Below, piece by piece: positions 1,958-27,549 of a stretch of 32,301 bases of DNA. Made by a program: the position numbers and the translations under genes. The DNA lies in NCBI GenBank assembly GCA_030638455.1, contig DAOWEP010000023.1, forward strand, positions 1-32,301. The letters run 5' to 3'. The notes below the pieces were generated by a model that did no database searches, had not been told where the DNA came from, and saw only the letters and a list, made by a program, of their open reading frames with translations. The first letter of the stretch is position 1; each line of letters opens with the position of its first letter. The DNA is from Gammaproteobacteria bacterium. GTDB lineage: Bacteria > Pseudomonadota > Gammaproteobacteria > DAOWEP01.

Positions 1958-2326
1958 ATGGGTAAAACAATTTTAATAGTTGATGATTCAGATTCAATGA
2001 GACATGTGCTCGGGGTTACCTTGAGAAAGGAAGGATATGAAGTAATCGACGCTAAAGATGGTGTTGATGCCCTGGAAAAGCTTGATGGAACAAGGATCTC
2101 ATTGATTATCAGTGATATCAATATGCCGAATATGGATGGCATAACCTTTATTAAGGAGGTGAAAAAAATTTATGCGTACAGGTTTACGCCTATTTGTACG
2201 TTGACCACCGAAGGGGGAAGGAAAAGGATTGATGAAGGGAAGGATGCCGGTGCCAAGGCGTGGATGGTTAAACCGTTTGTGCCACAAAAATTACTCGAAA
2301 CCGTTTCAATGCTTGTGATGCCCTGA
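1958..2326 (+). CDS. cheY: CheY-like single-domain response regulator
   Basis: 122 aa. Receiver signature ILIVDDSD, SDINMPNMDG, TLTTEG, MVKPF. It is the first gene of the che cluster. Confidence 0.9.
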   Translation: MGKTILIVDDSDSMRHVLGVTLRKEGYEVIDAKDGVDALEKLDGTRISLIISDINMPNMDGITFIKEVKKIYAYRFTPICTLTTEGGRKRIDEGKDAGAKAWMVKPFVPQKLLETVSMLVMP

Positions 2327-2387
2327 TCTGGATTTTTATATTAAGAAGCGTATTAAAACAATTAATAAAGAAAGTGGAGAGAAGACT

Positions 2388-2720
2388 ATGTCTATCAAAA
2401 CGTATGCTCGGAATGGAAAGTGCAAAATCAAGGTGGAGGTTGACATGACCATCTACACAACAGCGGATCTAATGCCGAAGATATTAAAGAGCCTGGATAA
2501 ACACAAGGAATTGGTTATAGATTTGTCTGATGTATTTGAGATTGATACATCAGGCATTCAGCTTCTTGAATTCATAAAACGTGAAGCCAGGCGAGATAAT
2601 AAAGTATTCAGCATGGTTTCTCATAAAGAGAACGTGCTGGATGTGTTTCATCTTTACCGATTGAATGGCCAATTGGATGCGATACCGGATAATTCTGTAT
2701 CGGAAATTAAGGTTGCCTAG
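2388..2720 (+). CDS. STAS-domain protein (anti-sigma-factor-antagonist fold)
   Basis: 110 aa. VIDLSDVFEIDTSGIQLL matches the SpoIIAA/RsbV-type DLSxVxFIDSSG segment, including the Ser/Thr position. It lies between cheY and cheA. Confidence 0.75.
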   Translation: MSIKTYARNGKCKIKVEVDMTIYTTADLMPKILKSLDKHKELVIDLSDVFEIDTSGIQLLEFIKREARRDNKVFSMVSHKENVLDVFHLYRLNGQLDAIPDNSVSEIKVA

Positions 2721-2731
2721 GTATCGCCTTC

Positions 2732-4960
2732 ATGAATGAAGAAATACAGGAAAGCATCCAGGTATTTGTTTCCGAGGCGGGGGAATTGCTTGACGAGATG
2801 GAATCTGCTCTTCTTGTGCTGGAAGAAGACCCCTCTCATGAAGGACATATTAATACCGTATTCCGGGCCGTTCATACCATAAAAGGTTCAGCCGGACTTT
2901 TTTCATATGATCATATTGTGGATTTCTCCCACCATGTTGAAAGTGTTCTGGACAGGGTGCGTGACGGGCAACAGAAAATTACCAGTGAATTACTGTCCAT
3001 ATTGCTGGCTTGTCATGACATTCTGGAAAATCTTGTGCAAGCCGCTGTCAATGATCAGGGTGCGGGTGATGAAGAAGTACAGGAAAGAACACGCGGGATT
3101 GCTGGACAGCTTGAACAATATCTTGGAGAAAGTGCATGTGCGGTGGATGAGAATCCTATGGTTAGCCATGAAGTACTACAGATTGATGACCAGATATCAG
3201 GAATAGAGCTGGGTAGTAATTGGCATATATCTCTACGCTTTGGTCCTGATGTACTGCGCAATGGCATGGATCCCTTGTCCTTTATGCGTTATCTCTCCAG
3301 GCTTGGTGAGGTCGTCCAGATTCTTCCTGTTTGGGATGATATGCCCGGCAGGGGCGAGATGGAGCCTGAAAGTTGCTATCTGGATCTTGAGATCGAATTC
3401 AAAAGTGATGCGGACAAGGTAACCATTGAAAATGTATTTCAGTTCGTCAAGGACGACTGCAAGGTAACCATTCTTCCGCCACTCACCCGCCATTCTCTTT
3501 ATAAGGAAGCAATTGAAGATCTTCCTGGTGAGCCAATGCGCCTTGGCGATATCCTGGTTGAAAGTGGTGCGGTAACAGAACGTGAGCTCAAAGAGGCTCT
3601 GGAAGTCCAGCAGAGTGAAGTGGATCAGGCTGAGCTCAAGATGGAAAATATTTCAAAAACTCCAATCGGTGAAGTCCTGATACATAAAGGATCCGTACAT
3701 CCTGAGTTGGTCAATGCGGCAGTAAATAAGCAGGCAAAGAACAAAGGATCGCCAGAAAAAACCATTCGCGTAAGTGCCGATAAGCTGGAGTCTCTTATTA
3801 ACCTTATGGGCGAACTGGTGATATCCACTGCAAACATAGCCTTGCTCGCAAATCTCACAAGAAAAGATACGCTGAATGATGCGTTAATTGAGGCCACTGA
3901 AAATATGGGGCAACTGGTCGATGGGGTTCGTGATGCGTCGCTTGGCTTGCGTATGGTGCAAATTGGCGAAACGTTTTTTCGATTTCGTCGTATTGTGAGA
4001 GATGTGTCTCATAAATCATGTAAGGATATCGAGCTCAAGATCAGTGGTGGTGAAGCTGAGCTAGATAAAACAGTTATTGAGAAAATATCAGATCCGCTTT
4101 TACATCTGGTTCGTAACGCAATAGATCATGGTATTGAGTCAACGGAAACACGCCATAAAACCGGTAAGCCAAAAAAAGGTTTGTTACATCTTAGTGCATC
4201 ACATGATTCGGGCGGTATTGTAATTAAGGTAAGTGATGATGGCTGTGGATTATCGCACGAGAAAATACTTGCAAAGGCACAAGACCTGGGCCTGGTTAAA
4301 GACAATCAGAAGCTTTCTGACCAGGAGGTATATCGCCTGATATTCGAGCCTGGATTTTCAACAGCAGAGCAGGTAACTGATCTTTCCGGGCGTGGAGTCG
4401 GGATGGATGTAGTCAGGCGCAATATTGAAGCACTGCGTGGACATGTCGATGTCGAAAGTCAGCCGGGAAAAGGCACCAGTTTTAGTATTCACCTGCCATT
4501 AACACTGGCGATTATCGATGGTTTTCTGGTCAGGGTTGGTAAGTCTTTTTATGTGATCCCGCTGGATATGGTGGAAGAATGTACAGAATTGCCAGAGGAG
4601 TTCCAGAATGCCAGTCAACTAAATAGCTATATGGACTTGCGTGGAGAAGTTTTGCCATTTATCCATCTCGCAGAGCTGTTTCAGGAAAAAAATGTGCGAT
4701 CAGGACGCGAAAATATCGTGGTAGCAAAGTTCGCAGGTCAGAAGGCTGGTCTGGTTGTGGATGAATTGCATGGTGAGTACCAGACAGTTATCAAGCCGTT
4801 GGGAAAAGTTTTTAGACAACTTCATGGTATCAGCGGGGCAACTATTCTGGGTAGCGGGAAAGTTGCCATGGTTATTGATGTGCCTGCATTGGTGAAAACG
4901 GCCGCTTCTGGGGCATTTGAACATGGTCGTTTCAGTAGCAATTCAGAAGTGCTTAATTGA
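2732..4960 (+). CDS. cheA: Chemotaxis histidine kinase CheA (P1 Hpt, P2-like region, inserted MshEN-like double motif, P3, P4, P5)
   Basis: 742 aa. Hpt site VHTIKGSAGLF. ATP-binding core HLVRNAIDHG, DDGCGL, GRGVGMDVV. C-terminal CheW-like domain (GFLVRVGKSFYVIPLDMV). No C-terminal receiver. Confidence 0.95.
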   Translation: MNEEIQESIQVFVSEAGELLDEMESALLVLEEDPSHEGHINTVFRAVHTIKGSAGLFSYDHIVDFSHHVESVLDRVRDGQQKITSELLSILLACHDILENLVQAAVNDQGAGDEEVQERTRGIAGQLEQYLGESACAVDENPMVSHEVLQIDDQISGIELGSNWHISLRFGPDVLRNGMDPLSFMRYLSRLGEVVQILPVWDDMPGRGEMEPESCYLDLEIEFKSDADKVTIENVFQFVKDDCKVTILPPLTRHSLYKEAIEDLPGEPMRLGDILVESGAVTERELKEALEVQQSEVDQAELKMENISKTPIGEVLIHKGSVHPELVNAAVNKQAKNKGSPEKTIRVSADKLESLINLMGELVISTANIALLANLTRKDTLNDALIEATENMGQLVDGVRDASLGLRMVQIGETFFRFRRIVRDVSHKSCKDIELKISGGEAELDKTVIEKISDPLLHLVRNAIDHGIESTETRHKTGKPKKGLLHLSASHDSGGIVIKVSDDGCGLSHEKILAKAQDLGLVKDNQKLSDQEVYRLIFEPGFSTAEQVTDLSGRGVGMDVVRRNIEALRGHVDVESQPGKGTSFSIHLPLTLAIIDGFLVRVGKSFYVIPLDMVEECTELPEEFQNASQLNSYMDLRGEVLPFIHLAELFQEKNVRSGRENIVVAKFAGQKAGLVVDELHGEYQTVIKPLGKVFRQLHGISGATILGSGKVAMVIDVPALVKTAASGAFEHGRFSSNSEVLN
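3539..3733 (+). other. Two MshEN/T2SSE_N-type 24-residue motifs inside CheA (aa 270-293 and 311-334)
   Basis: The motifs are RLGDILVESGAVTERELKEALEVQ and PIGEVLIHKGSVHPELVNAAVNKQ. The published MshEN c-di-GMP motif is RLGxx[LVI][LVI]xxG[LVI][LVI]xxxxLxxxLxxQ. Motif 1 fits at every fixed position except one (Ala for L/V/I). Confidence 0.6.
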
Positions 4961-5047
4961 GCGTGTTGGATAGTTACATATTGTTTAATTAAACCGGAAT
5001 ATATTTTATGGCGGTATCCGCCTGCTAAGGACATAAATGGAGTTTCT

Positions 5048-8000
5048 ATGAAGACAGTGTCACAAAAAGCCAGTAACGAAGTACAGGTAGAAGAAGGTAT
5101 GTTACTTGTAGTGAGGAGTGATGATAAAGGCATTGTTACCTATGCTAGCGATGACTTTATTAAGATTAGTGGTTTTGAAAGTAGTGAGCTTATCGGGGAA
5201 TATAATATTGCGATTCATCATCCGGATATGCCAGCAGAAGTTTGTGAGGAACTTTGGTTGACGATAAGTTCCGGAAAGCCCTGGATAGGGCTGATTAAAG
5301 AATCTTGCAAGAATGGTGATTACTATTGGGTGGAGAAAAATATAACTCCAGTGTTTAAACAAGGACGCATTATCGAATACTTGTCAGTGTCTACCAAACC
5401 TACTCGTGAACAGATTGCTGAGGCCGAGCTGTGGTACCAACAAATCAGAGCAGGAAAAAAACCAAAAAATAAATTATATGAAAGGCTAAATGTATTTCGA
5501 GACCTCAAGATAGGGCAAAAACTGGGTTTCGTGAGTATTATATTCTTGTTGTTGATCACAGTTTTATCTGTGGATTTAGTGCTGACAAGGAATGAGGCCA
5601 TTAATTTCGCAGAGCAGGAAATAAACGGGGTGAGATACCTGAGGCCAGTGAGAAAGCTCCTGCAAAATATCCTTCAGCATCGAGGGCGGGTCGCTGCCTA
5701 TCTTAACGGTCACAACCCCCTTCAATCCGGTATTCTAGAAGCGCATCATGAAATTGATAAAAATTTACAGGCTATCGCGGTAGTGGATCAGGAGCTTGGT
5801 GAACAGCTAGATACCACCATAATATTGAAGGCCGTAACAGAAAAATGGCACTCCCTCAAGAAACAGGGCCTTGATCTGAATTATAAGGAAAGTTTTGCAC
5901 GTTATACAGCTCTTCATAAAGATATTGTCAAACTAGCTACCCAGGTACGAGACACTTCAGGTCTCATACTGGATGGAGAGCTGGACACTTATTACCTTAT
6001 GGATCTGGCAGTAAACTGGGTTACTGATATTACCGAGAGGTTGGGTCAAAACAGAGGGGTTGGTTCCGGAATTATCAGTCGAGGTCACTTTGATGATGGG
6101 GAGCGGGAAAAAATGATCGTGTTACGGGCATTAATGCAGTCTGGCTCGGCAGGTCTGGCTCATGCGCTCGAACATACTTCCAATGTCAATCGATCAAGCG
6201 TGCAGGTACAGGATTTATTCAAGTCAATAGAAATCTTTGATGCTCAGATTAGAACTCTCATCAAAGGCAACATCAATGACCTCAACACAAGTGATTATTT
6301 TGCGGCGGGCACACGGGCGGTAGATAACATTTTTACCCTGTACGATGTCTCGTCGCAGATTTTGATAGAGAAACTACAGGAAAGAGCGGATCGCCTGTCT
6401 CGTAATATTCTCCTGGTTATGCTTTTTGTTCTTGCAGGCGCGTTTTTATCTGTTCTAGTGAGTATTGGAGTTACGAAAAATATTGTTCGTTCTTTGAGGA
6501 AAGCTGTCTGGCATTTTAACCGGATTTCTGAAGGCAGCTATCAAGAAGAAATTGATATCAAGAAAGGAGACGAGATTGGTGATTTGTTGCGTGGTCTTAA
6601 GTCCATGCAGGTAAATCTTGCATTTAATATTAATAAGGAAAAGGAAAGCGCGCATGGTATGCGGCGTATCAAGACAGCACTAGATCAGGTGGCTACCGGA
6701 GTGATGATGTCAGATAAAGATCGCAATATTATTTATATGAACAAGGCCGTTAAGAAGATGTTTGAAGATGCTCAGGAAGATATCCGTAATGAGTTGCCGT
6801 GCTTCGATGTAGATAAACTAATGGGATCATGCATTGATCAATACCATAAAAATCCAGCTCATCAGATTGATGTGTTGGGGGAAATGAATGAACCAAACAG
6901 TGGATCCATTATGCTGGGTGGTCATACTTTCAAGGTAAATATGACACCTGTATTTGATGATCTTGGGGAGCGCCTGGGTACTGCCATTGAATGGATGGAT
7001 AGTACATCTGAGGTGGCAGTAGAGAATGAGATTGACTCGATTATTGAAGCAGCTGGAAACGGCGATTTCTCTCAACGGATTTCACTTGATGGAAAGGAAG
7101 GCTTCTTCGAGAAACTGGCCAGGGGCATCAATAAGATCATAAGTACCAGTGATTCAGGATTAAATGATGTGGCCAGGATTATTCGTGAACTGGCGTCGGG
7201 TGACTTGAGACACACAATGGATAAAGATTATGAGGGTATCTTTGGGGAGCTCAAGAATGATGTAAATTCAACTATTACCAAGTTGTCTGAGGTCATAAGT
7301 GAAGTAAGTAGTAACGCGAATATGATTTCAAGTGCCTCAGAGCAATTAAGTGCAACCGCCCAGACATTAAGTCAGGATACCAGTAATCAGGCGTCCAGCG
7401 TTCAGAAAACCAGCGCATCTATTGAAGAGATGATCGCATTGATTAGCCAAAATAGTGAAAACGCAAAGATCACGGACAGTATAGCAATGGAAGCATCTAC
7501 ATCTGCAAAGGAAGGGGGATATGCGGTGCTGGATACTGTTGATGCTATGAATAGCATCGCTGACAAAATCGGAGTTATTGAAGAAATAGCCTATCAGACG
7601 AACATGCTGGCATTGAATGCAGCAATAGAAGCGGCCAGGGCAGGTGCACAGGGAAAAGGGTTTGCGGTTGTTGCTACTGAGGTTCGGAAACTGGCTGAGC
7701 GCAGTCAGGTTGCTGCCCAGGAAATCGGTAGTTTGGCAGCAGATAGTGTAAAGATTGCAGGAAAAGCAGGGGACATGCTCGAGCAGATAGTGCCAAATAT
7801 TGCCAAAACTGCAGATTTGGTGCAGGAGATTTCTGCTTCATCTGAAGAGCAGGCAGCAGGTGTTGGTCAAATTAGCAATGCGATGTACCAGCTCGATCAT
7901 CTGACACAAAAAGGATCATCCAGTGCTGAAAATCTTGCATCAACTTCAATTGAATTGCGTGGCCAGGCAGAACAACTAAATCAAATGATGTCGTTTTTCT

Positions 8001-8224
8001 CGCTAAGAAAAAAATACAGAATGTTAGATCAAGAGAGTACTAAGAGTACTAGTGGAGACAGAAGGTCAGCGTCTGTTGTCAGTACTTTGCAAATTCCAGA
8101 TCCAAAAGAAAATATTAGCATATCAGCGGAAAATGGTGCGCAGGGTACAGATGACCAGGAAAAGCGTGACATTCTTGAGATTGAACAGGGCGACTCAAGT
8201 GAAGTTGATTTCGAGAGATTCTAG
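5048..8224 (+). CDS. Methyl-accepting chemotaxis protein. Order of domains: Aer-type N-terminal PAS, TM1, about 270-aa periplasmic helical (NIT-like) domain, TM2, HAMP, second PAS, further HAMP-like repeats, MA signalling domain.
   Basis: 1058 aa. The N-terminus aligns with E. coli Aer PAS as I recall it ([28 protein letters not shown]...KNGDYYWV). TM segments are [20 protein letters not shown] and [39 protein letters not shown] resembles the NIT motif. The hairpin tip is [41 protein letters not shown]. Confidence 0.95.
8207..8221 (+). other. C-terminal pentapeptide DFERF of the MCP: candidate CheR/CheB tethering site at the end of a long low-complexity tail
   Basis: The last five codons, gat ttc gag aga ttc, precede the tag stop. 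This fits the aromatic-x-x-Phe shape of NWETF-type pentapeptides. It is preceded by a roughly 85-residue Ser/Asp/Glu/Gln-rich tail that follows the signalling domain. Confidence 0.5.
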
Positions 8225-8240
8225 CAAGGGATATGGCGTT

Positions 8241-8804
8241 ATGTCACCAGTAGCACATGTAACCACAGATGATGACTCAGGAGCTGATCAGATAGAGAGT
8301 CAAAACCAGTTTCTAAGCTTCAGGTTGGCAGATGAGGTATATGCAATTGATCTTATGAGCCTCAAAGAGATTATTGGATACGGTGATTTGACAAGTGTTC
8401 CTATGATGCCGGGCTTTATACGTGGGGTAATAAACTTGCGTGGAAGAGTTGTTCCTGTCGTGGATCTAGCAGAGAGGCTTGGTGGTCAGAAGACAGAGGT
8501 TAGGAAAAGGACCAGTATTATTATCGTGGAGATTTTTGATGAAAGTGATGACGAGAGAATTGATATTGGCATCATAGTCGATAGTGTGAATGAAGTTCTT
8601 GATATTTGCCCGGATGATATTGAGCCGCCTCCGAGTTTCGGTGCAAAGATTCGTACTGATTTTATTGAGGGGATGGGAAAGGTAGACGGGAAATTCCTGG
8701 TGTTACTTGATATAGGGAACATTCTTTCAATTGAAGAATTGTCCATGTTGAATGATGTAAATGTAGGGGTTAAGGAACCTGCCAGGAAACCGGAGACAGA
8801 ATAA
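8241..8804 (+). CDS. cheW: CheW coupling protein
   Basis: The track ORF starts at 8052 but overlaps the MCP 3-prime end. An in-frame ATG at 8241 follows the MCP stop (8222-8224). FLSFRLADEVYAIDLMSLKEII..VPMMPGFIRGVINLRGRVVPVVDL is a typical CheW sequence. Confidence 0.9.
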   Translation: MSPVAHVTTDDDSGADQIESQNQFLSFRLADEVYAIDLMSLKEIIGYGDLTSVPMMPGFIRGVINLRGRVVPVVDLAERLGGQKTEVRKRTSIIIVEIFDESDDERIDIGIIVDSVNEVLDICPDDIEPPPSFGAKIRTDFIEGMGKVDGKFLVLLDIGNILSIEELSMLNDVNVGVKEPARKPETE

Positions 8805-8805
8805 T

Positions 8806-9684
8806 ATGGTTAATGTACCAGACAAACTTACTGCTATCGGTAATCATAACTCGGTATATTCTGATGTTGTAAAGGAGTTTGTATGTGAGATAAAGGATGA
8901 TGAATTCCTGCGGATAAGGAATTATTTATACATGGAATCAGGGATTCACCTGGGGGTGGATAAAAAACAAATGATGGCAACTCGTCTTGCGAGCCGTTTA
9001 AGACATTTTAACGTGCACACATATAGTGAATATCTTCGCCTGGTGATGGATGGGGATCATGATGAAGAAAAGCAGGAGATTGTCGACCTGCTAACCACGC
9101 ATGAAACATATTTTTTCAGAGAGCCAGCCCACTTTGATTTTCTAAGGGAACGAATTTGCGAGAATTGGGAATATGGGAGGCTATTTCGCGCATGGAGTGC
9201 AGCCAGCTCTTCCGGAGAAGAAGCATATAGTATGGCCATGGTGTTTTCAGAACACCTGCCGCAAAATTACTGGGAGTTGGTTGGGTCTGATATATGCAGA
9301 GAAGTGCTGGAGAAGGCGCGTGCTGGATACTATCCAGTAGAAAAAACACAAAATATACCCGTTAACTATCTCAGTCAATATTGCCTGAAAGGTGTACGTT
9401 CACAAAACGGAGTTATGCTAATAGACGAGAATCTCCGTAAGCGGGTTCAATTCATAAAAGTAAACCTTAATCAATCATTTGAAGGTTTTCTTGGAATGTT
9501 TGATGTGATCTTTTTGAGAAATGTTCTTATCTATTTTGACCTTCATGCAAGACAACAAATCGTGCATCGTATCGTTGAGAAGCTGAATAAAGGTGGCTAC
9601 TTGTTTGTCAGTCATACGGAATCAATTATTGCTATTAGTGACCGACTTCAGCAAGTAGCGCCAAGTATTTATCAAAAAATATAG
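8806..9684 (+). CDS. cheR: Chemotaxis methyltransferase CheR
   Basis: 292 aa. THETYFFRE and SAASSSGEEAYS (SAM-binding region) are present. The ATG lies one nucleotide after the cheW stop. Confidence 0.9.
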   Translation: MVNVPDKLTAIGNHNSVYSDVVKEFVCEIKDDEFLRIRNYLYMESGIHLGVDKKQMMATRLASRLRHFNVHTYSEYLRLVMDGDHDEEKQEIVDLLTTHETYFFREPAHFDFLRERICENWEYGRLFRAWSAASSSGEEAYSMAMVFSEHLPQNYWELVGSDICREVLEKARAGYYPVEKTQNIPVNYLSQYCLKGVRSQNGVMLIDENLRKRVQFIKVNLNQSFEGFLGMFDVIFLRNVLIYFDLHARQQIVHRIVEKLNKGGYLFVSHTESIIAISDRLQQVAPSIYQKI

Positions 9685-9741: not shown

Positions 9742-10890
9742 ATGGATAAGAAAAAAAACAAAATTAAAGTATTGTTGGTGGACGACTCTGCAGTTGTAAG
9801 GCAATCGCTATCCAGGGTATTTGCTACTGCACCAGATATTGAAATTATTGGTAGTGTTATAGATCCACTTTTTGCACTGGAGCGAATGAAGCAGCAATGG
9901 CCTGATGTAATTGTGCTGGATATTGAAATGCCACGCATGGACGGAATAACTTTTCTGAATATTATTATGAAAGAACACCCAACTCCTGTAGTAGTTTGTT
10001 CGGCGCTGACCGCGAAAGGAGCAGAAACCACATTGCAGGCCCTCTCTTTAGGTGCTGTGGAAGTTATTAACAAGCCTGCCATTGGCGTAAAGGATTTTTT
10101 GAGGGAATCAGCGGAGTTTCTGATTGATGCTGTGAGAGCAGCTTCATGTTCTGATCTGAAAAAACTACAAGATAATTCAAATAAAAAAATTGAGATAAAT
10201 TCAAGTTCTGTAGAAGATGCCGTTTTCTCCAATGATTTACAGGGTTCAATGAATAATACAACTGACAAGGTAGTTGCCATAGGGACATCAACAGGAGGTA
10301 CGCAGGCACTTGAGCTGATTCTTCCCGCATTACCAAGAGTTGTACCTGGTATTGTGGTTGTTCAGCATATGCCAGAAAAGTTCACCCGATCTTTTGCTGA
10401 AAGACTTAATTCATTGTCCCGAATTAATGTAAAGGAGGCGGAGGATAATGACCGCGTATTACCTGGTGTGGCCCTGATTGCACCGGGTGGACGTCATATG
10501 GTTTTAGTCAGAAGTGGGGCACATTACCATGTAAAGATTCATGATGGACCACCTGTAAACAGGCATCGACCTTCAGTTGATGTGCTGTTCAGGTCAGTAG
10601 CGAAGGTGGCCGGTAAGAATTCATATGGCATTATATTAACAGGTATGGGTGATGATGGTGCAAGAGGGCTAAAAGAAATGCAGGATGTTGGCGCCAGTAC
10701 CGTTGCTCAGGATGAGTCTACCAGTATCGTTTTTGGTATGCCAAGGGAGGCAGTGAAGCATGGAGGTGTACAAACTGTTTTGCCGTTACAGGAAATACCA
10801 GGGTCAATTATCAGAAACCATTCTGACTCAGTTGATATGCAGCAGAAATCATGCCTGGTAAATAGTTGCAGAGAAGTATGTAGTAAGTAA
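9742..10890 (+). CDS. cheB: Chemotaxis methylesterase CheB (REC plus esterase)
   Basis: Receiver [21 protein letters not shown]. Esterase GTSTGG, VVVQHMP, GMGDDG. The track start 9733 is TTG; the ATG at 9742 is preferred. It has an unusually long linker and a 25-30 aa Cys-containing C-terminal tail. Confidence 0.9.
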
Positions 10891-20023: not shown

Positions 20024-21919
20024 GTGCATAAAGAACACGAGAACACATTGATCAATGTAAGCGAAAAAACCCAGCAGCAATTGAACGCGCTGGCAAATGC
20101 AAGTGTGCGGATGGCAATGATATCAAGTGCGACGGATGTAATTCAGCAAGCTGATAACAGGTTGCAGAATGGGGGGGAGCTTGATTCTTTTTATAAAGAA
20201 ATCCTCAGTGAAGTGATGGAGGTTACTGCTGCACGTTATGGTGCATTTGTTGTTTTTGATATTGAGGGAAGTCCTTGTGGATCTGTTGCGCACGAAATTT
20301 CAGCAGGGCTTGTGGGAGGGCTTGTAGAATTCTCAGTTAGTAAGGGTATGTTTGGAGCTGAGCCTAACGAAATATCAGCAATTCGTGTTGACAATATGGC
20401 TGAGGAATCATTATCAGGAAATTGCATATCGGGTCATTCAAATATAAAAACATTGTTTATTCAGCCATTAATAATGGGTGGAGTGATGCGTGGAATTATA
20501 TATTTGGCAGATAAGAAAAGCGGTGAATCATATACAGATAGCGACGAATTTATTCTTAACATGGTCGCCAGGGATATAGTAAATATTTTAGATCGAAATG
20601 AATTATCAAAAAAAATGCACGAAGATATTGAATTACGTGAGCATGCACAAAAAGAATTAAATATGGCCAGCGCGCAGCTTCGGTATCTGGTGGAAAATAT
20701 ACCATCGGTTATCTATCGCGCGGTTCCGTCAGGTGATTTTTCTTTTACCTATATCAGTGAAAATATCCACCGTACTCTTGGGTATCACCCTATGGATGTT
20801 TTAGGAGACCCCAATTTCTGGTTTCAACATATACACCCGGATGATTTGCCGGAATTATTTCCCAGAATATCTTATCTGGTTGAAGATGGTCAGCAAACAT
20901 ATGATTATCGTTTTAAACATAAGAATGGTTCGTATCACTGGATGCATGACACAATGCGGGTAATTTATGATGCTGATAATACACCTCTCGAAATAGTAGG
21001 TTCATTGACTGATATTACAGAATTGAAACTGGCAGAGAAGGAGATCGATAAGACCAATATGGAGTTGGATGAGGCACATGAACAATTATTGCAATCAGAG
21101 AAAATGTCATCTATCGGGCAACTAGCTGCTGGAGTAGCGCATGAGATCAATAATCCAATCGCCTTTGTTTATTCCAATCTTAGTACCATGCAAAAGTATA
21201 CGCAGAAACTGCTTAATGTACTGAAAGTCTACAGTAAGGCAGAACCACTACTTGCGCAGAACGAGGAGGTTGCTAAGGAAGTTCAGCAGGTGAGAGAGCA
21301 GGCTGACCTGGATTTTCTGATAGAAGATTTACCGGAGCTTGTGCAGGAGTCACGAAATGGTTTGTCCCGTGTTAAACAGATCATTCAGGACCTGAAGGAT
21401 TTCTCACGGGTTGATCATGCTGAACTGGAATTTGTGGATTTGCACAAGGGTCTTGACAGTACATTGAATATTGCCAATAACGAGATCAAGTACACGGCGG
21501 AGGTCGTAAAGGAATATGGCGATTTGCCGCTGGTGGAGTGTCGCTCGGCACAAATCAATCAGGTGTTTATGAATCTGTTAGTAAATGCGGCCCATTCCAT
21601 TAAGGAGCATGGAGTGATTACCATAAGGACAGGAACAGAAGAAAAACTGGTATGGGTAGAGATTACGGATACAGGGAGCGGGATTGCACCTGAAAATATG
21701 AAAAAGTTGTTTGACCCATTTTTTACAACAAAACCGGTGGGCAAAGGTACTGGGTTAGGGTTGTCACTTTCTTACGGGATTGTGAATACTCACGATGGCC
21801 GAATTGAGGTAGAGAGTGAAGTTGGTAAGGGCGCTACATTCAGGGTATGGCTTCCAGTTAAGCAGGAAGACAAGCCCGATGAGCTTGATAATGAAGTGCA
21901 GGCATCTGCAATTGCCTGA
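20024..21919 (+). CDS. Soluble histidine kinase with GAF and PAS inputs (paralog 3)
   Basis: 631 aa; GTG start is uncertain. The GAF-like FYKEILSEVMEVTAARYGAFVVFD..IIYLADKKS is paralogous to that of the preceding kinase. PAS: VIYRAVPSGDFSFTYISENI..YRFKHKNGSYHWMHD. SEKMSSIGQLAAGVAHEINNPIA, NQVFMNLLVNAAHSI. Confidence 0.85.
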   Translation: MHKEHENTLINVSEKTQQQLNALANASVRMAMISSATDVIQQADNRLQNGGELDSFYKEILSEVMEVTAARYGAFVVFDIEGSPCGSVAHEISAGLVGGLVEFSVSKGMFGAEPNEISAIRVDNMAEESLSGNCISGHSNIKTLFIQPLIMGGVMRGIIYLADKKSGESYTDSDEFILNMVARDIVNILDRNELSKKMHEDIELREHAQKELNMASAQLRYLVENIPSVIYRAVPSGDFSFTYISENIHRTLGYHPMDVLGDPNFWFQHIHPDDLPELFPRISYLVEDGQQTYDYRFKHKNGSYHWMHDTMRVIYDADNTPLEIVGSLTDITELKLAEKEIDKTNMELDEAHEQLLQSEKMSSIGQLAAGVAHEINNPIAFVYSNLSTMQKYTQKLLNVLKVYSKAEPLLAQNEEVAKEVQQVREQADLDFLIEDLPELVQESRNGLSRVKQIIQDLKDFSRVDHAELEFVDLHKGLDSTLNIANNEIKYTAEVVKEYGDLPLVECRSAQINQVFMNLLVNAAHSIKEHGVITIRTGTEEKLVWVEITDTGSGIAPENMKKLFDPFFTTKPVGKGTGLGLSLSYGIVNTHDGRIEVESEVGKGATFRVWLPVKQEDKPDELDNEVQASAIA

Positions 21920-21924
21920 TATAA

Positions 21925-23262
21925 ATGGGTGCGATAATGAATAATGCAGATACCATAATACAAGAACAGACATTTTCCGAGTCACTGTTGTTTGTTGATG
22001 ATGAGGAAAGCATTCTTTCTTCATTGAAACGGCTATTTAGGCCATTGGGTTACCGCATCTTTACGGCCCAGAGCGGGGCAGAGGGGCTGGATATTATGAA
22101 AAAAGAGGAGATTGATCTGGTGGTATCAGATATGCGGATGCCTGAAATGGATGGCGCACAGTTTCTTGAAAATGTAGCGGCCAACTGGCCTAAAACAGTG
22201 CGTATTCTTCTGACAGGTTATGCAGATATTACATCCACTGTTGCAGCAATTAATAAGGGGAAAATATACAGTTATTTCAGTAAACCCTGGGAAGATAATG
22301 ACATTGCTCTGTCCATACGCCATGCGCTGAACGTAAAGGATCTGGAAGAGGAAAGAGACGGTCTCCTTGAAATGATATTGGTCAAGAATGAAAAACTGAA
22401 AGAGCTGAATGAAAGTCTTGAAGACAAGGTAGAACAGCGAACCGCAGAACTCAAGCAGGCCTTTCTCAAGCTCGAAAAGTCTCATGAGTCACTTAAAATG
22501 GGTTATTTCGCAACGGTTAAAAGTTTTTCCAGCTTGATTGAGATGCGTGAAGGTGCAGTCGCGGGTTACTCACGTCGCATTGCAGATCAGGCACGAAAGC
22601 TGGCACTGAAAATGGAGATGAGTAATGCCGATGTTCAGGATGTTCTCTATGCATCGTTACTACATGATATAGGTAAAATCGGAATGCCTGATCATCTTTT
22701 TAACAAACCATTTAATGCGCTTAGCCCTGAAGATAAAGTGACTGTCTGTAAACACCCTGTTATAGGTCAGGGAGTTATGATGGCATGGGGATCTCTGGAG
22801 GGCGTTGCAAGGATTATTCGTAGTCATCGTGAATGCTACGATGGTTATGGTTATCCGGACTCTCTGAAGGGAATAGAAATTCCATTGGGGGCAAGAATTC
22901 TATCCGTTGTAAGTGATTTTGAAGCATTAAGGATTGGGAAGCTGGCATCACAAAAGTATTCTGCTTTGGAAGCACAGGAATATCTTATCAGGCATCGTGG
23001 TAAACGATATGATCCTGATGTTGTTGACGCATTTTTGAATATGGATTCCAGTCATCAGCCAACACCACAAAATCAGGAGCTGAAGATTTCTTTAAAGTCC
23101 CTGGTGCCAGGTATGGTTCTATCAAAAGATGTGATGTTGAAAGACGGAGTACTGTTATTGTCTGAGGGCCGTATTCTAGATAAAAGAAATATCGAGGAGC
23201 TCCGGGATATGGAGAAATCTCTGAATGAGAATCTGGATATCCATGTATTAATGAAAGGGTAA
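21925..23262 (+). CDS. Response regulator: REC, HD-GYP, C-terminal LxPGxxLxxDV module
   Basis: 445 aa (alternative ATG at 21937). LLFVDDEESIL, SDMRMPEMDG, YSYFSKPW, LLHDIGKIGMPD, HRECYDGYGYPD. Confidence 0.9.
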   Translation: MGAIMNNADTIIQEQTFSESLLFVDDEESILSSLKRLFRPLGYRIFTAQSGAEGLDIMKKEEIDLVVSDMRMPEMDGAQFLENVAANWPKTVRILLTGYADITSTVAAINKGKIYSYFSKPWEDNDIALSIRHALNVKDLEEERDGLLEMILVKNEKLKELNESLEDKVEQRTAELKQAFLKLEKSHESLKMGYFATVKSFSSLIEMREGAVAGYSRRIADQARKLALKMEMSNADVQDVLYASLLHDIGKIGMPDHLFNKPFNALSPEDKVTVCKHPVIGQGVMMAWGSLEGVARIIRSHRECYDGYGYPDSLKGIEIPLGARILSVVSDFEALRIGKLASQKYSALEAQEYLIRHRGKRYDPDVVDAFLNMDSSHQPTPQNQELKISLKSLVPGMVLSKDVMLKDGVLLLSEGRILDKRNIEELRDMEKSLNENLDIHVLMKG

Positions 23263-23366
23263 TAATTCGATGTTCAGGATTCTGGTTATTAATTATGAAG
23301 GGAAAAAAGTTGGTTAGACCATGAGTGATGAAGACATACAGGACGAAGGAAGCGAGTAAAGCAGCC

Positions 23367-24041
23367 ATGTCTGAATTCAATGAAAAAAAGAACAAGATTA
23401 CACTAAAGCTGGTGTATTACGGCCCTGCGCTTAGTGGAAAGACAACGAACCTGATGAGCTTACATGACATACTTAGTCCTGAGCTTAAAGGAGAGATGAT
23501 GGTGCTGGAAACCAAGGACGACCGAACCCTGTTTTTTGATCTTTTGCCAATGGGGATTACTGCGCCATCAGGTTTGTTGATAAAACTGAAGTTGTTTACG
23601 GTGCCGGGACAAGTTGCACATGATAGTACCAGAAAAGCAGTTCTGTCACGTGCAGATGGTGTAGTGTTTGTAGCGGACTCCCAGAAAACGCAAAGCATTA
23701 ATAATGCAGAATCATTTGAAAATCTTGTAGGTAATATTGCCAGGGTAGGATTGGATATTGAAAAGCTACCATTGGTTGTTCAGTTTAATAAACGTGATCT
23801 ATCAGATATCTTGACCGAGGATGAAATTAGAACCCGCTGGAAAGACGCTCATTGGCCGTTATTATTTAGTACTGCATTGCAGGGATCTGGTGTAGAAGAG
23901 ACATTAAGTGAATTGTTATCACTTGTCTATGACGCATTGGATGAGGAGTATGGCCTTAATGAGCGGCATAATCTGGATAAGGATTTGTTTGTATCAGGTG
24001 TGACGGGTTGTGAGTTCTCAAAAGCGGTCAATGGAGGATAA
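23367..24041 (+). CDS. mglA: MglA-family Ras-like small GTPase with a roughly 35-aa C-terminal extension
   Basis: Taken from the internal ATG at 23367 (MSEFNEKK..). It matches Myxococcus MglA as I recall it. P-loop: YYGPALSGKTTN here, YYGPGLCGKTTN in MglA. Switch 1: DDRTLFFDLLP here, TDRTLFFDFLP in MglA. TVPGQV, VFVADSQ and QFNKRDL also match. Confidence 0.85.
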   Translation: MSEFNEKKNKITLKLVYYGPALSGKTTNLMSLHDILSPELKGEMMVLETKDDRTLFFDLLPMGITAPSGLLIKLKLFTVPGQVAHDSTRKAVLSRADGVVFVADSQKTQSINNAESFENLVGNIARVGLDIEKLPLVVQFNKRDLSDILTEDEIRTRWKDAHWPLLFSTALQGSGVEETLSELLSLVYDALDEEYGLNERHNLDKDLFVSGVTGCEFSKAVNGG

Positions 24042-24045
24042 AAGT

Positions 24046-25290
24046 ATGGGTTTAGAGTCTTTTAAAAGTGAACCGCTTCCTGCGTTTGACAGGGAAATGT
24101 CAATGGAAGAATTATTGGCGGGTATTGATCATGATAAATTGAGAGGAACATTGGCAAGCCTTTTAGGTGTGCCTGTATGCTTGCTTAATGAAGACGAGGA
24201 TGTAGTGTTAGGGTATAAGCTTGGACCATCCTGTAAACGTGCGCCGATTCATTCTGATATGGAGATCATTGGTTACCTTGAAGCAGGGGAAATAGATGAT
24301 GAAGCCCTTGAGTCGGCAGTATGTTTTATTGAATTACTATTAAAGAATTCGGAACGTTATTTAATGGCTTCAAATCTTCATTTGCAGGCGGTAAATGAAG
24401 ATTTTGAGAAGCTGAAAAAGAAGCATGAGGCATTAGTGGAGTCAGAAGGTCGTTATAAGGAGCTTTCAGAAAATCTTGAGCAACGTGTTCAGGAGCAGGT
24501 CAAGACTATTGATCTTGCCCGGAGACAGATTTATCAATCAGAAAAACTGGCATCAGTAGGACAGCTGGCGGCAGGCGTGGCGCATGAAATTAACAATCCG
24601 ATAGGTTTCATGAGAAGTAATCTTAATACAGCACAATCCTATCTTGAAAAACTAACGGTATTTTCAGAGAAGTTGGTAGAGGAGAATAATGAGAGAGATT
24701 TGTTGCGTATATGGAATGAAATGGAACTGGACTACGTCATCAAGGATTTCAACGAAATGATGGAAGAGACAATTGATGGAGCCGTGCGTATTGCGAAAAT
24801 CGTAAGTGATTTAAAAGGGTTTTCAAATGTAGATGCAAATGAAGAGGAGGTAATCGATATAAATCAGTGTGTCCGCAGGGTGTGTGACATTGTATCTGGT
24901 AAGGATGAAAGGCATGCGGTACAGATACGAGGTTTTGAGGGTTGCCCGCCTGTACGATGTCGGGTGGGAGAGCTTGGTCAGGCATTACTGAATATATTAT
25001 TAAATGCAGAGCAGGCAATTAAGGGCTCTGGGAATATTTATGTGCAAACCTCATGTGAGGACGACAGGATATGTATTTCTATTGTCGATACTGGAGTCGG
25101 TATGACCAATGAAGTATTGGAGCGCGCGTTTGAGCCATTTTTTACAACTCGTGATGTAGGTAAAGGAGCAGGACTTGGTCTTACTGTCAGTCGAGATATC
25201 GTACAATCACATGATGGAGAAATATCAATAGAGAGTGAAGTGGGTAACGGCACCACCGTGAAAGTCTGGCTACCTGTGGCCAAGGATTAG
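24046..25290 (+). CDS. Soluble histidine kinase with an unassigned roughly 110-aa N-terminal domain (paralog 4)
   Basis: The ATG at 24046 lies 7 nt after GGAGGA (24033-24038), and the mglA stop lies between them. The track GTG at 24010 overlaps mglA. SEKLASVGQLAAGVAHEINNPIG, LLNILLNAEQAI, DTGVGM, GAGLGLTVS. Confidence 0.85.
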   Translation: MGLESFKSEPLPAFDREMSMEELLAGIDHDKLRGTLASLLGVPVCLLNEDEDVVLGYKLGPSCKRAPIHSDMEIIGYLEAGEIDDEALESAVCFIELLLKNSERYLMASNLHLQAVNEDFEKLKKKHEALVESEGRYKELSENLEQRVQEQVKTIDLARRQIYQSEKLASVGQLAAGVAHEINNPIGFMRSNLNTAQSYLEKLTVFSEKLVEENNERDLLRIWNEMELDYVIKDFNEMMEETIDGAVRIAKIVSDLKGFSNVDANEEEVIDINQCVRRVCDIVSGKDERHAVQIRGFEGCPPVRCRVGELGQALLNILLNAEQAIKGSGNIYVQTSCEDDRICISIVDTGVGMTNEVLERAFEPFFTTRDVGKGAGLGLTVSRDIVQSHDGEISIESEVGNGTTVKVWLPVAKD

Positions 25291-25305
25291 TAAAGAGAAA
25301 ATATT

Positions 25306-27549
25306 ATGGGAAATTATTCATCATTATTTACAGATGTTTCAGATGACAAAGAAGATGACTCGATAGGAAATCCTGTATTTGAAGGCTATCAAATTCTTTT
25401 TGTCGATGATGAGAAGAATGTGCTCAACTCGCTTAAACGTGTTTTTCGACAGGAAAATTATCGGATACTAACGGCTGTAGATGGAGAAGAGGCACTGGAA
25501 ATACTGGGCCGTGAAAAATGCCAGCTTATGATCTCGGATTACATGATGCCGAAGATGGATGGTGCCGAGCTCTTGCGAGAGGTTAAGAAAAACTATCCCG
25601 ACATGATACGTATTATGCTGACAGGCCACGCAGATATGAATGCTGTTCTGGCCGCGGTGAGGGATGGTGCTGTATATAAGTTTATTCTGAAGCCCTGGAA
25701 CGATGATGACATACGCGTGACTGTAGCGTTGGCACTGGAGCAATATGATTTAATACAGAATAACAAGATATTGATAAAGCAGAACAAGGAAAAGAGCGAG
25801 GAGATCAGCTCTCTGGCAAAGCTTGCCGTAACCAATCGTAGTCAGCTTGCCATTATGTTGCATAAGCGAAATCTTCTGAATGAGAAGCAGGTTCAGGAGC
25901 TGTACAAGCAGCAACAAGTCAATAAAGAGCCAATCTTTAAGATTATTCTTGAACGTGATTGGGTTAGTGAGGATAAAATACGCAATATTCTTCGTAAAGA
26001 TCTGATGGTTGAGGAAGTATCACTGGATGAAATCCAGGTAGATGCTTCAGTTGCTTCGCTAATTCCGCATAGTCTATGTAAACAACAATCAGTGTTACCG
26101 ATAAGGGAGAGTAACCGGCGCTTGACATTGGTAATGGCAGACCCGATGGATATGGGGCTAATTGATGACTTGAGTTTTACTACGGGTCTTGAGATCCAGG
26201 CCGTGATGGCTAATGTTTCAGATATAAAAAAGAAGATTGCTGAAATTTATGGACAAGATGATAGTTCTTTTACTGAAATTGAAACGCTGATTGGGCTAGC
26301 AGATCCTTTTGAAGGTATCGAAGTTCTTATTGAGGATGACGATGACATTTCTATTGAAGAATTACTTCATGGTACAGATGAGCCTCCTGCTATACGATTG
26401 GTCAACGCAATTATAATTGAGGCTATTCGTCTGCGTGCAAGCGATATTCATATTCAGCCGCGAACAAAAAGTGTAATGGTGCGCTACCGTATTGATGGTG
26501 TTTTGCATGACAAGATTCAGGTGCCACATAGCATGCACATGTCTTTGGTTGCCCGTATCAAAGTAATGGCTGAGCTGGATATTACAGAACGTCGTCGACC
26601 TCAAGACGGGCGAATAACAGTAAAAACACCCATGCGCATTGTTGACTTGAGAATTTCTTCGTTGCCTACCATTAGTGGTGAGAAGATTGTCATGCGTATA
26701 TTGGACCGAAATTCATCTGTACTAAAGATGGAACGCTTGAGTATGTCTGATATGAATCTGAAAAAAATTACTAATGTCGCATGTAGGCCACAAGGGCTTA
26801 TTCTTGCAACAGGTCCTACAGGTAGTGGCAAGACCACCACGCTTTATTCCATGTTGCAGCATGAGGCCACCCCTGAAAAGAACTATGTCACTATTGAGGA
26901 TCCTGTTGAGTATTATATGGATATGGCTGGCCAGGTAATGATAAAAGATAAAATTGGTCTGGATTTTTCGAGTGTATTGCGCGCCATTCTACGTCAGGAT
27001 CCAGATGTGATTTTATTGGGTGAGATTCGTGATTATGAAACTGCGGAGGTAGCCCTTAATGCGGCATTGACAGGGCATTTAGTATATTCAACATTGCATA
27101 CTAACTCCGGAGTGGCAACTATTGCGCGCCTGTTTGACCTGGGACTGAAGCCCTTTGTGCTAGCCTCAGCACTGGAGGCTATTATTGCACAGAGATTGGT
27201 TCGGAAAATATGTGAGGATTGCAGTGAATCGGTATCTGTAGATTCTGATGTACTGTATAAACTAGGCCCTGTTTTCCAGTCATCAAAAATTGAAACATGC
27301 AAAGGTAAAGGCTGCCCCAAGTGCAATAACACTGGTTATTCGGGCCGGGTTGCGATTTATGAAGTATTGATTCCAAGTGAAAAGATGCGCCACCTGATAT
27401 CTTCAGGTGCCAGTATTCATGAGATTACAAATCTGGTCAATGAAGAAGGCATGGTTACGCTAATTGAGGATGCCCACGATAAAGTTAGTATGGGCCTGAC
27501 TACAATAGAAGAAGTATTTCGTGTTTTAGGCCCACAAGTTATTGATTGA
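25306..27549 (+). CDS. PilB/GspE/MshE-family secretion ATPase with an N-terminal receiver: REC, T2SSE_N-like domain, AAA+ ATPase with a tetracysteine motif
   Basis: 747 aa. REC: LFVDDEKNVL, SDYMMPKMDG, YKFILKPW. Walker A GPTGSGKTTT. VTIEDPVEY. Walker B DPDVILLGEIRD. His box TGHLVYSTLHTN. CEDC..CPKC. Confidence 0.9.
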   Translation: MGNYSSLFTDVSDDKEDDSIGNPVFEGYQILFVDDEKNVLNSLKRVFRQENYRILTAVDGEEALEILGREKCQLMISDYMMPKMDGAELLREVKKNYPDMIRIMLTGHADMNAVLAAVRDGAVYKFILKPWNDDDIRVTVALALEQYDLIQNNKILIKQNKEKSEEISSLAKLAVTNRSQLAIMLHKRNLLNEKQVQELYKQQQVNKEPIFKIILERDWVSEDKIRNILRKDLMVEEVSLDEIQVDASVASLIPHSLCKQQSVLPIRESNRRLTLVMADPMDMGLIDDLSFTTGLEIQAVMANVSDIKKKIAEIYGQDDSSFTEIETLIGLADPFEGIEVLIEDDDDISIEELLHGTDEPPAIRLVNAIIIEAIRLRASDIHIQPRTKSVMVRYRIDGVLHDKIQVPHSMHMSLVARIKVMAELDITERRRPQDGRITVKTPMRIVDLRISSLPTISGEKIVMRILDRNSSVLKMERLSMSDMNLKKITNVACRPQGLILATGPTGSGKTTTLYSMLQHEATPEKNYVTIEDPVEYYMDMAGQVMIKDKIGLDFSSVLRAILRQDPDVILLGEIRDYETAEVALNAALTGHLVYSTLHTNSGVATIARLFDLGLKPFVLASALEAIIAQRLVRKICEDCSESVSVDSDVLYKLGPVFQSSKIETCKGKGCPKCNNTGYSGRVAIYEVLIPSEKMRHLISSGASIHEITNLVNEEGMVTLIEDAHDKVSMGLTTIEEVFRVLGPQVID

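Follow-up and report, generated by a model that had tools for sequence, protein, structure and literature searches.

A co-directional array of chemosensory, kinase, GTPase, and receiver-fused ATPase genes in a gammaproteobacterial metagenome contig

Gene content of the array and its Che core

A complete metagenome-assembled contig of a gammaproteobacterium of the lineage DAOWEP01 (contig DAOWEP010000023.1 of GenBank assembly GCA_030638455.1; 32,301 bp, GC content about 0.41), referred to as the window over its whole length in the following, carries an array of 20 successive plus-strand genes at positions 1958–27549. The locus is also present in two ENA assemblies (samples SAMN18200495 and SAMN18200497). 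The array consists of three separable modules. Module A is a predicted F8-like Che core with the order CheY-STAS-CheA-MCP-CheW-CheR-CheB, where MCP stands for methyl-accepting chemotaxis protein. Module B is a middle block of a receiver-domain (REC) protein, a hybrid kinase, a REC-PAS protein, a small protein called o104 here, an HDOD protein, a REC-HD-GYP protein, and three soluble kinases. Module C is composed of a NosR-family REC-HD-GYP protein followed by a trio, namely, an MglA-like GTPase, a kinase, and a REC-MshEN-PilB-type ATPase. The genes are listed below with their coordinates, strand, and the evidence for each assignment; L numbers denote related loci retrieved for comparison.

g01, 1958..2326, +: CheY, single REC, 122 aa (Pfam Response_reg, E 1e-24); CheY has the same position in the F8-type clusters L166–L168
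g02, 2388..2720, +: STAS protein of the anti-sigma-factor-antagonist type, 110 aa (Pfam STAS/STAS_2; NCBIfam ant_ant_sig at 37 bits, below cutoff)
g03, 2732..4960, +: CheA with Hpt, dimerization (H-kinase_dim), HATPase_c, and CheW domains (Pfam)
g04, 5048..8224, +: MCP, 1058 aa, with PAS, transmembrane segment (TM) 1, NIT, TM2, HAMP, PAS, HAMP_2, MCPsignal, and a long tail (Pfam, hydropathy)
g05, 8241..8804, +: CheW, 187 aa from the ATG at 8241, in a reading frame that opens at 8052 (Pfam CheW, E 2e-38; orthologues 186–190 aa)
g06, 8806..9684, +: CheR (Pfam CheR_N and CheR)
g07, 9742..10890, +: CheB, REC and methylesterase (Pfam, homology)
g08, 10959..11462, +: REC-only protein, 167 aa, of a NosR/RpfG-like REC subfamily (Pfam; orthologues 70–75% identical after cheB in L169 and L170)
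g09, 11518..13569, +: hybrid kinase REC-HisKA-HATPase-REC-REC without an Hpt domain (Pfam; a hybrid kinase follows cheB in L166, L167, L169, and L170)
g10, 13782..14639, +: REC-PAS protein, 285 aa (Pfam)
g11, 14677..14991, +: o104, conserved 104-aa protein without a family (no Pfam or NCBIfam match)
g12, 15060..15938, +: HDOD protein (Pfam HDOD, E 2e-57)
g13, 15938..17047, +: REC-HD-GYP, 369 aa, start overlapping the HDOD stop as TGATG (Pfam HD_5 and Response_reg; orthologues 369 aa)
g14, 17055..18347, +: REC-histidine kinase with a HEINN-type DHp domain (Pfam)
g15, 18353..19879, +: soluble kinase with a weakly GAF-like N-terminus (Pfam HisKA/HATPase; GAF_2 at E 0.076)
g16, 20024..21919, +: GAF-PAS-histidine kinase (Pfam)
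g17, 21925..23262, +: predicted NosR-family REC-HD-GYP with an o104-like C-terminal extension; the start may be 21937 (NCBIfam NF053512, Pfam)
g18, 23367..24041, +: predicted MglA-family small GTPase, 224 aa, an orphan with no MglB nearby (phmmer, G motifs)
g19, 24046..25290, +: soluble histidine kinase, 414 aa, with a family-specific N-domain (about 85 aa) and a long helix after it (Pfam)
g20, 25306..27549, +: REC-MshEN-T2SSE, predicted receiver-fused PilB-type hexameric ATPase, 747 aa (Pfam)

An earlier note, made from the letters of this DNA, had claimed a 20-gene plus-strand run encoding six kinase cores and 11 receiver domains, with no fused DNA-binding domain and the MCP as the sole membrane sensor. 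The open reading frame (ORF) listing and a Pfam scan bear this out: the run, the domain inventory, and both counts agree, none of the 20 proteins has a DNA-binding domain, and the minus-strand ORFs inside 1958–27549 are all short shadows of plus-strand genes. Strong TM segments, as assigned by Kyte-Doolittle hydropathy alone and not by a dedicated TM predictor, are found only in the MCP, at residues 161–179 and 454–472 on both sides of the NIT domain; marginal values in CheA and CheB correspond to core helices. An alignment of the 11 RECs reveals the acidic pair, the phospho-Asp, and the Lys in every one of them, and the conserved Thr/Ser is lost in the middle REC of the hybrid kinase g09. Rfam and tRNA scans of the window gave no match.

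The 19 junctions from g01 to g20, recomputed with start codons picked by orthologue comparison and lengths, are 61, 11, 87, 16, 1, 57, 68, 55, 212, 37, 68, −1, 7, 5, 144, 5, 104, 4, and 15 nt. Those quoted before are exact (cheW/cheR 1 nt, the TGATG overlap between the HDOD and HD-GYP genes, kinase/kinase 5 nt, and mglA/kinase 4 nt). The wording “mostly tiny” is generous, since it fits 10 of the 19 junctions at ≤16 nt and three exceed 100 nt.

Module A has a complete set of CheA, CheW, CheR, CheB, CheY, and MCP in one cluster according to Pfam. From its gene order and from CheB and MCP similarity it is filed as F8-like, i.e., as a probable new member of a known chemosensory class. CheB homologues from the same samples are 99 and 83% identical to that of the window, those in metagenome-assembled genomes of other Gammaproteobacteria about 70%, and those of the Pseudomonas syringae group and P. 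fluorescens 64–65%. The order CheY-STAS-CheA-MCP-CheW-CheR-CheB is shared with F8 examples, P. syringae cluster II and Shewanella oneidensis che2 (PMC11253619, PMC9855816). In P. syringae, cluster II (cheA1/cheY1) is classed as F8, and PSPTO_0912 is the only 34H receptor and the only MCP with a C-terminal pentapeptide (PMC11253619). The corresponding cluster of Pseudomonas cannabina (L168) reads MCP-CheY-STAS-CheA-MCP-CheW-CheR-CheD-CheB and is followed by a transposase gene. The signalling domain of g04 aligns gap-free over its whole length with the MCP of this P. cannabina cluster, and both proteins end in pentapeptide-like C-termini, DFERF in the window and EFTRF in P. cannabina; the 34H/pentapeptide assignment thus comes indirectly, through this alignment and the tail, and not from an independent count of heptads. 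Unlike the F8 examples, the window has neither CheD nor an upstream soluble MCP, its MCP has a PAS-NIT-HAMP-PAS-HAMP input instead of a four-helix bundle (4HB), and its core is trailed by 13 more signalling genes. CheD is also missing from L166, L167, and L169, and is present in P. cannabina. F8 has been linked to the modulation of biofilm and motility in P. syringae.

The STAS gene between cheY and cheA bears on the claim that the array has no transcriptional output. It is kept at this place in L166 (GCA_036986275.1), L167 (GCA_011051685.1), and L168, and a REC-GerE gene lies directly upstream of the Che core in L166 and L167. STAS anti-sigma antagonists also occur, together with a serine phosphatase, in F7 stage 1–2 clusters (PMC7184735), whose gene order differs from that of the window, and in the Shewanella F7 cluster a STAS protein (CrsA) controls RpoS through the partner switch with CrsR (PMC9855816). 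Thus, the array might have a transcriptional output, either through STAS as a partner switch for a sigma/anti-sigma pair of another locus or through a DNA-binding response regulator encoded in trans, such as REC-GerE. We consider this improbable, for the window contains no RsbW-like anti-sigma kinase, PP2C phosphatase, or sigma factor, and no REC-GerE remnant upstream, and the STAS gene of F8-type clusters is uncharacterized. The claim therefore stands as to the absence of fused DNA-binding domains. With a STAS protein in the array and REC-GerE next to the cluster in relatives, however, a purely post-translational circuit is not established.

Recurrence of the modules in other genomes

The neighbourhood comparison shows that the parts of the array do co-occur in relatives, and the refuting condition named in the earlier note, parts that are never seen together, does not hold. 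A Logan contig from an independent sample, SRR25425413_59686 (21,938 bp; L169), has 17 genes, from MCP through REC-PilB, in the gene-for-gene order of the window: MCP-CheW-CheR-CheB-REC-hybrid histidine kinase (HK)-REC-106 aa-HDOD-REC-HD-GYP-REC-HK-HK-GAF-PAS-HK-REC-HD-GYP-MglA-HK-REC-PilB. Its CheB and g19 homologues are 71 and 66% identical to those of the window, respectively. A variant array, all on one strand, is found in a more distant relative (GCA_036986275.1, contig BTRG01000001.1, 122 kb; CheB 70%, g19 49% identical). This array starts with REC-GerE upstream and continues with soluble MCP-CheY-STAS-CheA-MCP-CheW-CheR-CheB; then come a hybrid HK, REC-PAS-GGDEF-EAL, REC, a 106-aa protein, HDOD, HAMP-HK, and REC-GAF-HK; it ends with an Avd-like gene, a phosphonate-binding protein gene, HAMP-PAS-HK, REC-HD-GYP, REC, MglA, HK, and REC-PilB. 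GCA_011051685.1 has the same first half. The Avd-like (23S_rRNA_IVP/bAvd) and periplasmic phosphonate-binding protein genes of GCA_036986275.1 (L172, 2559–3817) lie between the kinase block and the trio, and the phosphonate-binding protein, encoded before the HAMP-PAS kinase, may be an added periplasmic input.

Furthermore, other Che genes adjoin the trio elsewhere: CheA-CheW-REC and CheB in Noviherbaspirillum sp. Root189 (L045), CheW, CheW-REC, and MCP in L015, and CheR-TPR, CheW, and CHASE3-MCP in L004. The Che-trio association thus appears to have arisen more than once. In the first of these, a cultured isolate (NZ_LMHZ01000033.1, 3–18230), the CheA-CheW-REC/CheB pair, two large REC proteins, the trio, o104, HDOD, HK, REC-HD-GYP, and REC make up a single array of co-directional, overlapping genes. 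This isolate is a ready experimental model for Che-trio coupling.

A scan for carriers of the trio with one genome per species gave at least 501 loci, and all neighbourhood counts below refer to the best 80 of these, which were annotated with hidden Markov models (HMMs) built from the domains of the window itself and which come from Beta- and Gammaproteobacteria and some Desulfobacterota. The array is not one indivisible “super-cluster” as had been claimed, because the F8 core stands alone in Pseudomonas (P. cannabina) and the trio is without Che genes in 78 of the 80 genomes. Module B accompanies module A in L166 and L167, and the trio in L008–L010, L014, and others. Accidental juxtaposition is nevertheless unlikely, given that two diverged relatives have the full array as well and that the trio adjoins Che genes of other classes in three more genomes. 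A separate scan of metagenome contigs anchored on g09 gave only generic hybrid kinases (≤49% identity), none with Che, MglA, or PilB neighbours.

We tentatively prefer to read the array as a composite locus in which three recurrent modules have been joined in this lineage, and which may provide kinase/receiver/GTPase control of a pilus-like motor with Che input; this reading is plausible, somewhat short of probable. Unlikely in our estimate is a signalling-gene island in which the modules are merely adjacent, share no pathway, and have their own or distant partners. Such independence would agree with the F8 core of P. cannabina, with the many genomes in which the trio is alone or accompanied by HD-GYP only, with the junctions of 212, 144, and 104 nt at or near the module borders, and with the RECs beside the Che core, which are not CheY-like (see below). 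On the other hand, it would hardly be expected to leave an identical 17-gene order on a contig with only 66–71% protein identity, or all three modules in the same orientation on a single contig of a more distant relative, in which genes have been gained and lost. That module B accompanies both of the other modules, and that three other Che classes independently neighbour the trio, also speaks against it.

GTPase, kinase, ATPase, and their receivers

The trio is a widespread and strictly ordered unit. Gammaproteobacterial carriers among the best 80 include Chromatiales, Thiohalomonas, Sedimenticola, Methylomonas subterranea, Marinobacter, Pseudomonas indica, P. zhanjiangensis, Halovibrio, and Aliikangiella, and betaproteobacterial ones include Janthinobacterium, Noviherbaspirillum, Azonexus, Zoogloea, Dechloromonas, Aromatoleum, Azoarcus, Gallionella, and Sulfuricella. 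A kinase with the specific N-terminal region follows mglA in 76 of the 77 loci with room for it, and REC-MshEN-T2SSE lies downstream of mglA in 66 of 66. The mglA/kinase junction across loci is either a 4-nt gap or a 4–8 nt overlap. Distance matrices of the trio proteins correlate (r 0.81–0.85, Mantel p 0.001), which indicates that they are not shuffled independently and nothing beyond that. No MglB/Roadblock, pil, or gsp gene was found in the annotated contexts of the window and related loci, and a search for conserved unannotated neighbours of the trio (pilC, mglB, etc.) found none in more than 9 of the 80 loci.

g18 matches Myxococcus xanthus MglA (5ymx) with a phmmer E of 1.6e-45. Its motifs GPALSGKT, DRTLFFD with the intrinsic Arg, TVPGQ, and NKRD, including Arg53 and Gln82, are invariant in 21 homologues, out of more than 8000 homologues whose top 120 are 65–88% identical. 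Judged by this match and these motifs, g18 is a genuine member of the MglA family, for which the public annotation of identical or nearly identical proteins offers only “GTPase domain-containing protein”. No Robl_LC7 domain occurs in the Pfam-annotated contexts, and g18 is thus an “orphan” MglA in the sense of PMC4316618; 59 orphan MglA sequences were found, then set aside, by Wuichet and Søgaard-Andersen.

An MglA-family GTPase gene beside a histidine kinase gene is also known from the actinobacterial conservons (CvnA kinase, CvnB Roadblock, CvnC, and CvnD GTPase), in which the GTPase is regarded as belonging to the signalling core (PMC4316618). Unlike the conservons, the trio has neither Roadblock (CvnB) nor CvnC, its kinase is soluble instead of membrane-bound with HAMP, and it has response-regulator receivers, of which the conservons have none.

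The N-domain of g19 gives nothing in Pfam even at E 10. An AlphaFold2 model of it (50-sequence alignment, pLDDT 86.9) has two short helices, four strands, and a long helix into the DHp domain, and Foldseek returned weak GAF-like matches alone (best E 0.02, TM-score about 0.3). The idea that this domain is an MglB/Roadblock-like GTPase-activating protein was tried and is not supported, no Roadblock match being among the Foldseek results. By phmmer, the domain occurs in 71 clusters of 1.84 billion representatives, always at the N-terminus of kinases of about 400–425 aa or in fragments, and in this kinase family alone.

The third member of the trio, g20, has its best matches among solved structures in the type IVa pilus (T4aP) ATPase PilB of Geobacter and Myxococcus, with E 1e-130 over MshEN and ATPase domains compared with 1e-114 for GspE. 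In 71 orthologues (52–70% identical), the DD, D78, T106, and K129 of the REC are invariant, and the same is true of the Walker A and Walker B motifs, the Asp and His boxes, and all four Cys residues of the tetracysteine motif. Proteins identical or nearly identical to g20 are publicly annotated as “Flp pilus assembly complex ATPase component TadA”; this name is misleading for g20, whose predicted type is REC-MshEN-PilB. Its MshEN + T2SSE architecture is that of MshE and other MshEN ATPases. Unlike in the MshEN receptors of cyclic di-GMP (c-di-GMP), both 24-residue motifs (RLGxxLLxxGLLxxxxLxxxLxxQ) are degenerate family-wide and failed the relaxed pattern of Wang et al. (2016) at several key positions, much as in XpsE, which does not bind the ligand. 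In g20, positions 1/3/7/10 of motif 1 are Q/A/H/N, and positions 3 and 24 of motif 2 are F and D. A direct link from c-di-GMP to the ATPase through MshEN is therefore unlikely, and control is expected via the fused receiver.

Alternatively, g20 may not be a pilus motor and may instead be a regulatory or secretion ATPase, like those of the type II secretion system (T2SS) or MSHA, or a signalling NTPase, which is phospho-controlled and perhaps binds c-di-GMP, the ligand being tuned by the HD-GYP proteins. This option also has a low probability in our view. It would fit an extra, orphan paralogue that has no pil or gsp genes nearby, scores below both the PilB and GspE equivalog cutoffs, and co-occurs with HD-GYP genes in 51 of the 80 genomes, and, according to Wang et al. 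(PMC5013675), c-di-GMP can still be bound by imperfect MshEN motifs and is bound by a REC-MshEN protein of Bdellovibrio. The better match to PilB than to GspE along the full MshEN-ATPase length, the invariant tetracysteine motif, which is typical of extension ATPases, and the family-wide failure of both c-di-GMP half-sites argue against it.

Five of the receivers, the RECs of g08, g09 (N-terminal), g10, g17, and g20, belong to one subfamily with 38–55% mutual identity, in which those beside the Che core (g08, g09 N-terminal, and g10) are 52–55% identical to each other, and this subfamily is only about 30% identical to the RECs of CheY and CheB. Its closest solved relatives are NtrC- and RpfG-type receivers. 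A g10-type REC(-PAS) protein of about 275 aa precedes o104/HDOD in L007–L010, L013–L015, and others, and the block that opens with g10 also goes with the trio in genomes that are Che-less. o104, a protein of no Pfam or NCBIfam family, occurs in 20 of the 80 trio loci and in L166, L167, L169, and L170, and is weakly and specifically similar to residues 387–437 in the C-terminal extension of g17 (BLASTP E 9e-4). HDOD occurs in 27 of the 80.

HD-GYP genes lie within 10 kb of the trio in the 51 genomes mentioned above, and REC-HD-GYP lies ≤1 kb upstream of mglA in 38 of the 80. The g13 motifs are canonical (HD, HHE, and GYP). Those of g17 are HD, HRE, and GYP, and its HD-GYP activity is uncertain because HRE replaces HHE in the metal site; among 57 related proteins, about 40 retain HD and 37 retain GYP. 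The genomic tie between HD-GYP response regulators and a PilB-type ATPase recalls the RpfG-PilZ-FimX-PilB axis of Xanthomonas.

g17 matches the NosR family, NCBIfam NF053512, over all profile positions (1–422 of 422) with 533.7 bits against a cutoff of 400. NosR belongs to the NosP-NosK-NosR system of Burkholderia, Shewanella, and others. In B. pseudomallei, it is encoded in the operon nosR-nosP-nosK and phosphorylated by NosK, a soluble HEINN kinase with about 130 unassigned N-terminal residues; NosK in turn is under the control of NosP, an accessory heme protein (PMC12570481). Besides a full-length NosR-family REC-HD-GYP above the cutoff, module C has a soluble partner-type kinase of about 45 kDa with HEINN and an unrecognized N-terminal region of about 130–160 aa, g19 being likened to NosK by description only, and a gene for a putative accessory protein between the response regulator and kinase genes. 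Unlike in NosP-NosK-NosR, this accessory protein is an MglA-like GTPase and not a FIST/heme NosP, and a REC-PilB ATPase is added. No FIST domain was found in the window or in annotated related loci.

Additional components are seen in some trio loci. A REC of about 180 aa with the conserved C-terminal tail …EPGIT.V…PDGS…DE lies directly between REC-HD-GYP and mglA in many lineages, in L003–L005, L172 (8675–9208), and about 27 of the 80 loci. Reminiscent of RomR, this protein is a candidate partner of the GTPase. The window has no orthologue of it; g08 was considered as such and rejected, since the best match of these 180-aa proteins is the g10 REC (about 42% identity). In some lineages, a hemerythrin-domain histidine kinase is encoded directly after REC-PilB (L004, 15138–16652; L005, 14450–15973), which points to O2, iron, or NO as a further input of the same module.

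There are further features on both sides of the array. Upstream, the minus-strand ORF at 1–701 (start codon 699–701) is divergent from the cluster, runs off the window, and codes for the first 233 residues of a multi-pass membrane protein of no Pfam family, which may be the sensor domain of another signalling protein. A 1.25-kb non-coding gap upstream of cheY contains an inverted repeat (1140–1470, +), nested and about 330 nt long, that forms a three-way junction, with outer arms at 1145–1206 and 1406–1467 and inner hairpins at 1206–1303 and 1311–1406. Its RNA has a minimum free energy of −186.9 kcal/mol (z = −14.7 against shuffles). The repeat matches no Rfam family and has no copy in any related locus retrieved, and could be a miniature inverted-repeat transposable element or a structured non-coding RNA. 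The stretch upstream of cheY was also considered as a decayed copy of the soluble MCP or REC-GerE gene, which was rejected as tblastn and blastn gave no signal. Downstream, after a 332-nt gap, positions 27881–30883 (+) encode a Tll0287-like secreted protein (PF11845) that carries a CIACH heme-c motif, followed by CBS, cytochrome b561-type (Ni_hydr_CYTB), and CBS genes. This unit is kept only in the same-species contigs L001 and L002, and may be a small redox-sensing unit.

A possible signalling circuit and its meaning

The composite reading suggests the following circuit. HEINN-type kinases, above all g19, would phosphorylate the family of paralogous receivers, and through these receivers the HD-GYP phosphodiesterases and the motor ATPase of PilB type would be gated. 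The MglA-like GTPase, presumably coupled to g19 at translation, would be an accessory switch on this kinase; it is proposed as such because its gene position matches that of NosP in nosR-nosP-nosK, and CvnA/CvnD of the conservons are a second precedent. The output would be the assembly or polar placement of a fibre like the type IV pilus (T4P), together with local c-di-GMP turnover. The Che core would be an optional upstream input, providing a periplasmic (NIT) and a cytoplasmic (PAS) signal with methylation-based adaptation.

By analogy, the same logic may operate here as with Frz, MglA, and PilB in M. xanthus, which also combine a Che-type system, an MglA-family GTPase with an intrinsic Arg finger and a catalytic Gln, receiver-domain intermediaries, and a PilB-type extension ATPase. 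SgmX has a role in the Myxococcus polarity system as well. Unlike in Myxococcus, no MglB, RomR/RomX, or SgmX is seen here, the GTPase has a histidine kinase as its partner, the receiver is part of PilB itself, the genes are contiguous, and the hosts are Beta- and Gammaproteobacteria. In Myxococcus, MglA-GTP stimulates the T4P machinery (PMC9481161).

Several observations weigh against this circuit. A physical signal path from CheA into modules B and C is unproven because Che genes are near the trio in only 2 of the 80 genomes and the RECs beside the core are NosR-like, not CheY-like. The earlier note held that one chemoreceptor signal is carried through the array; the low similarity of these RECs to CheY and CheB does not favour CheA as their donor, and the idea stays at the level of inference. 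As for the output, the 10 kb around the trio contain no pilC, pilM-Q, or other fibre genes and no further conserved partner in any of the 80 genomes, and neither the window nor the related loci within 10 kb have pilC, pilD, or pilM-Q genes, a statement on loci and not on whole genomes; g20 scores 564.7 against a cutoff of 675.65 for the NCBIfam PilB equivalog (TIGR02538). The pilus output is an analogy because of these two facts. Nothing in the structural model ties the N-domain of g19 to the GTPase, and the Mantel correlations could reflect vertical descent alone. Finally, the three junctions above 100 nt leave room for separate transcription units, and sigma-70 promoter and terminator scans, whose counts equal those of shuffled controls, are uninformative on operon structure.

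Every single domain in the array is already known. The combination of an orphan MglA with a dedicated kinase and a PilB that carries a receiver, accompanied by NosR-type HD-GYP, HDOD, and o104 and by recurrent Che docking, appears to be undescribed: no description of the trio was found in the literature searched, though most papers in subscription journals were outside the reach of the search and this absence is not proof. Possibly, and more doubtfully than the composite reading itself, the trio is an undescribed “G-protein-coupled two-component system” of at least about 500 species, in which a Ras-like G protein would be the input or a co-regulator of a kinase that directly phospho-switches a pilus-type motor ATPase (and NosR-type HD-GYP), so that a surface-fibre motor is controlled post-translationally, and into which Che arrays of several classes, here F8, would plug.

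The locus matters in several respects. F8 and several other non-flagellar chemosensory classes still have no defined output, and, apart from those of Myxococcus, Bdellovibrio, Thermus, and the actinobacterial conservons, hardly any bacterial MglA-type GTPases have been studied. The present analysis corrects the automatic annotation of the ATPase (TadA) and the GTPase. The locus ties an F8 core to a strictly conserved, catalytically intact unit, whose parts suggest direct phospho-control of a PilB-type ATPase, a mechanism that was not found in the literature searched. Cultured strains of Pseudomonas, Marinobacter, Zoogloea, Azonexus, Aromatoleum, Methylomonas, and Noviherbaspirillum also carry the trio, and the proposal is thus directly testable by genetics and phosphotransfer profiling. 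If the proposal is true, the enigmatic F8 class would gain a concrete output.

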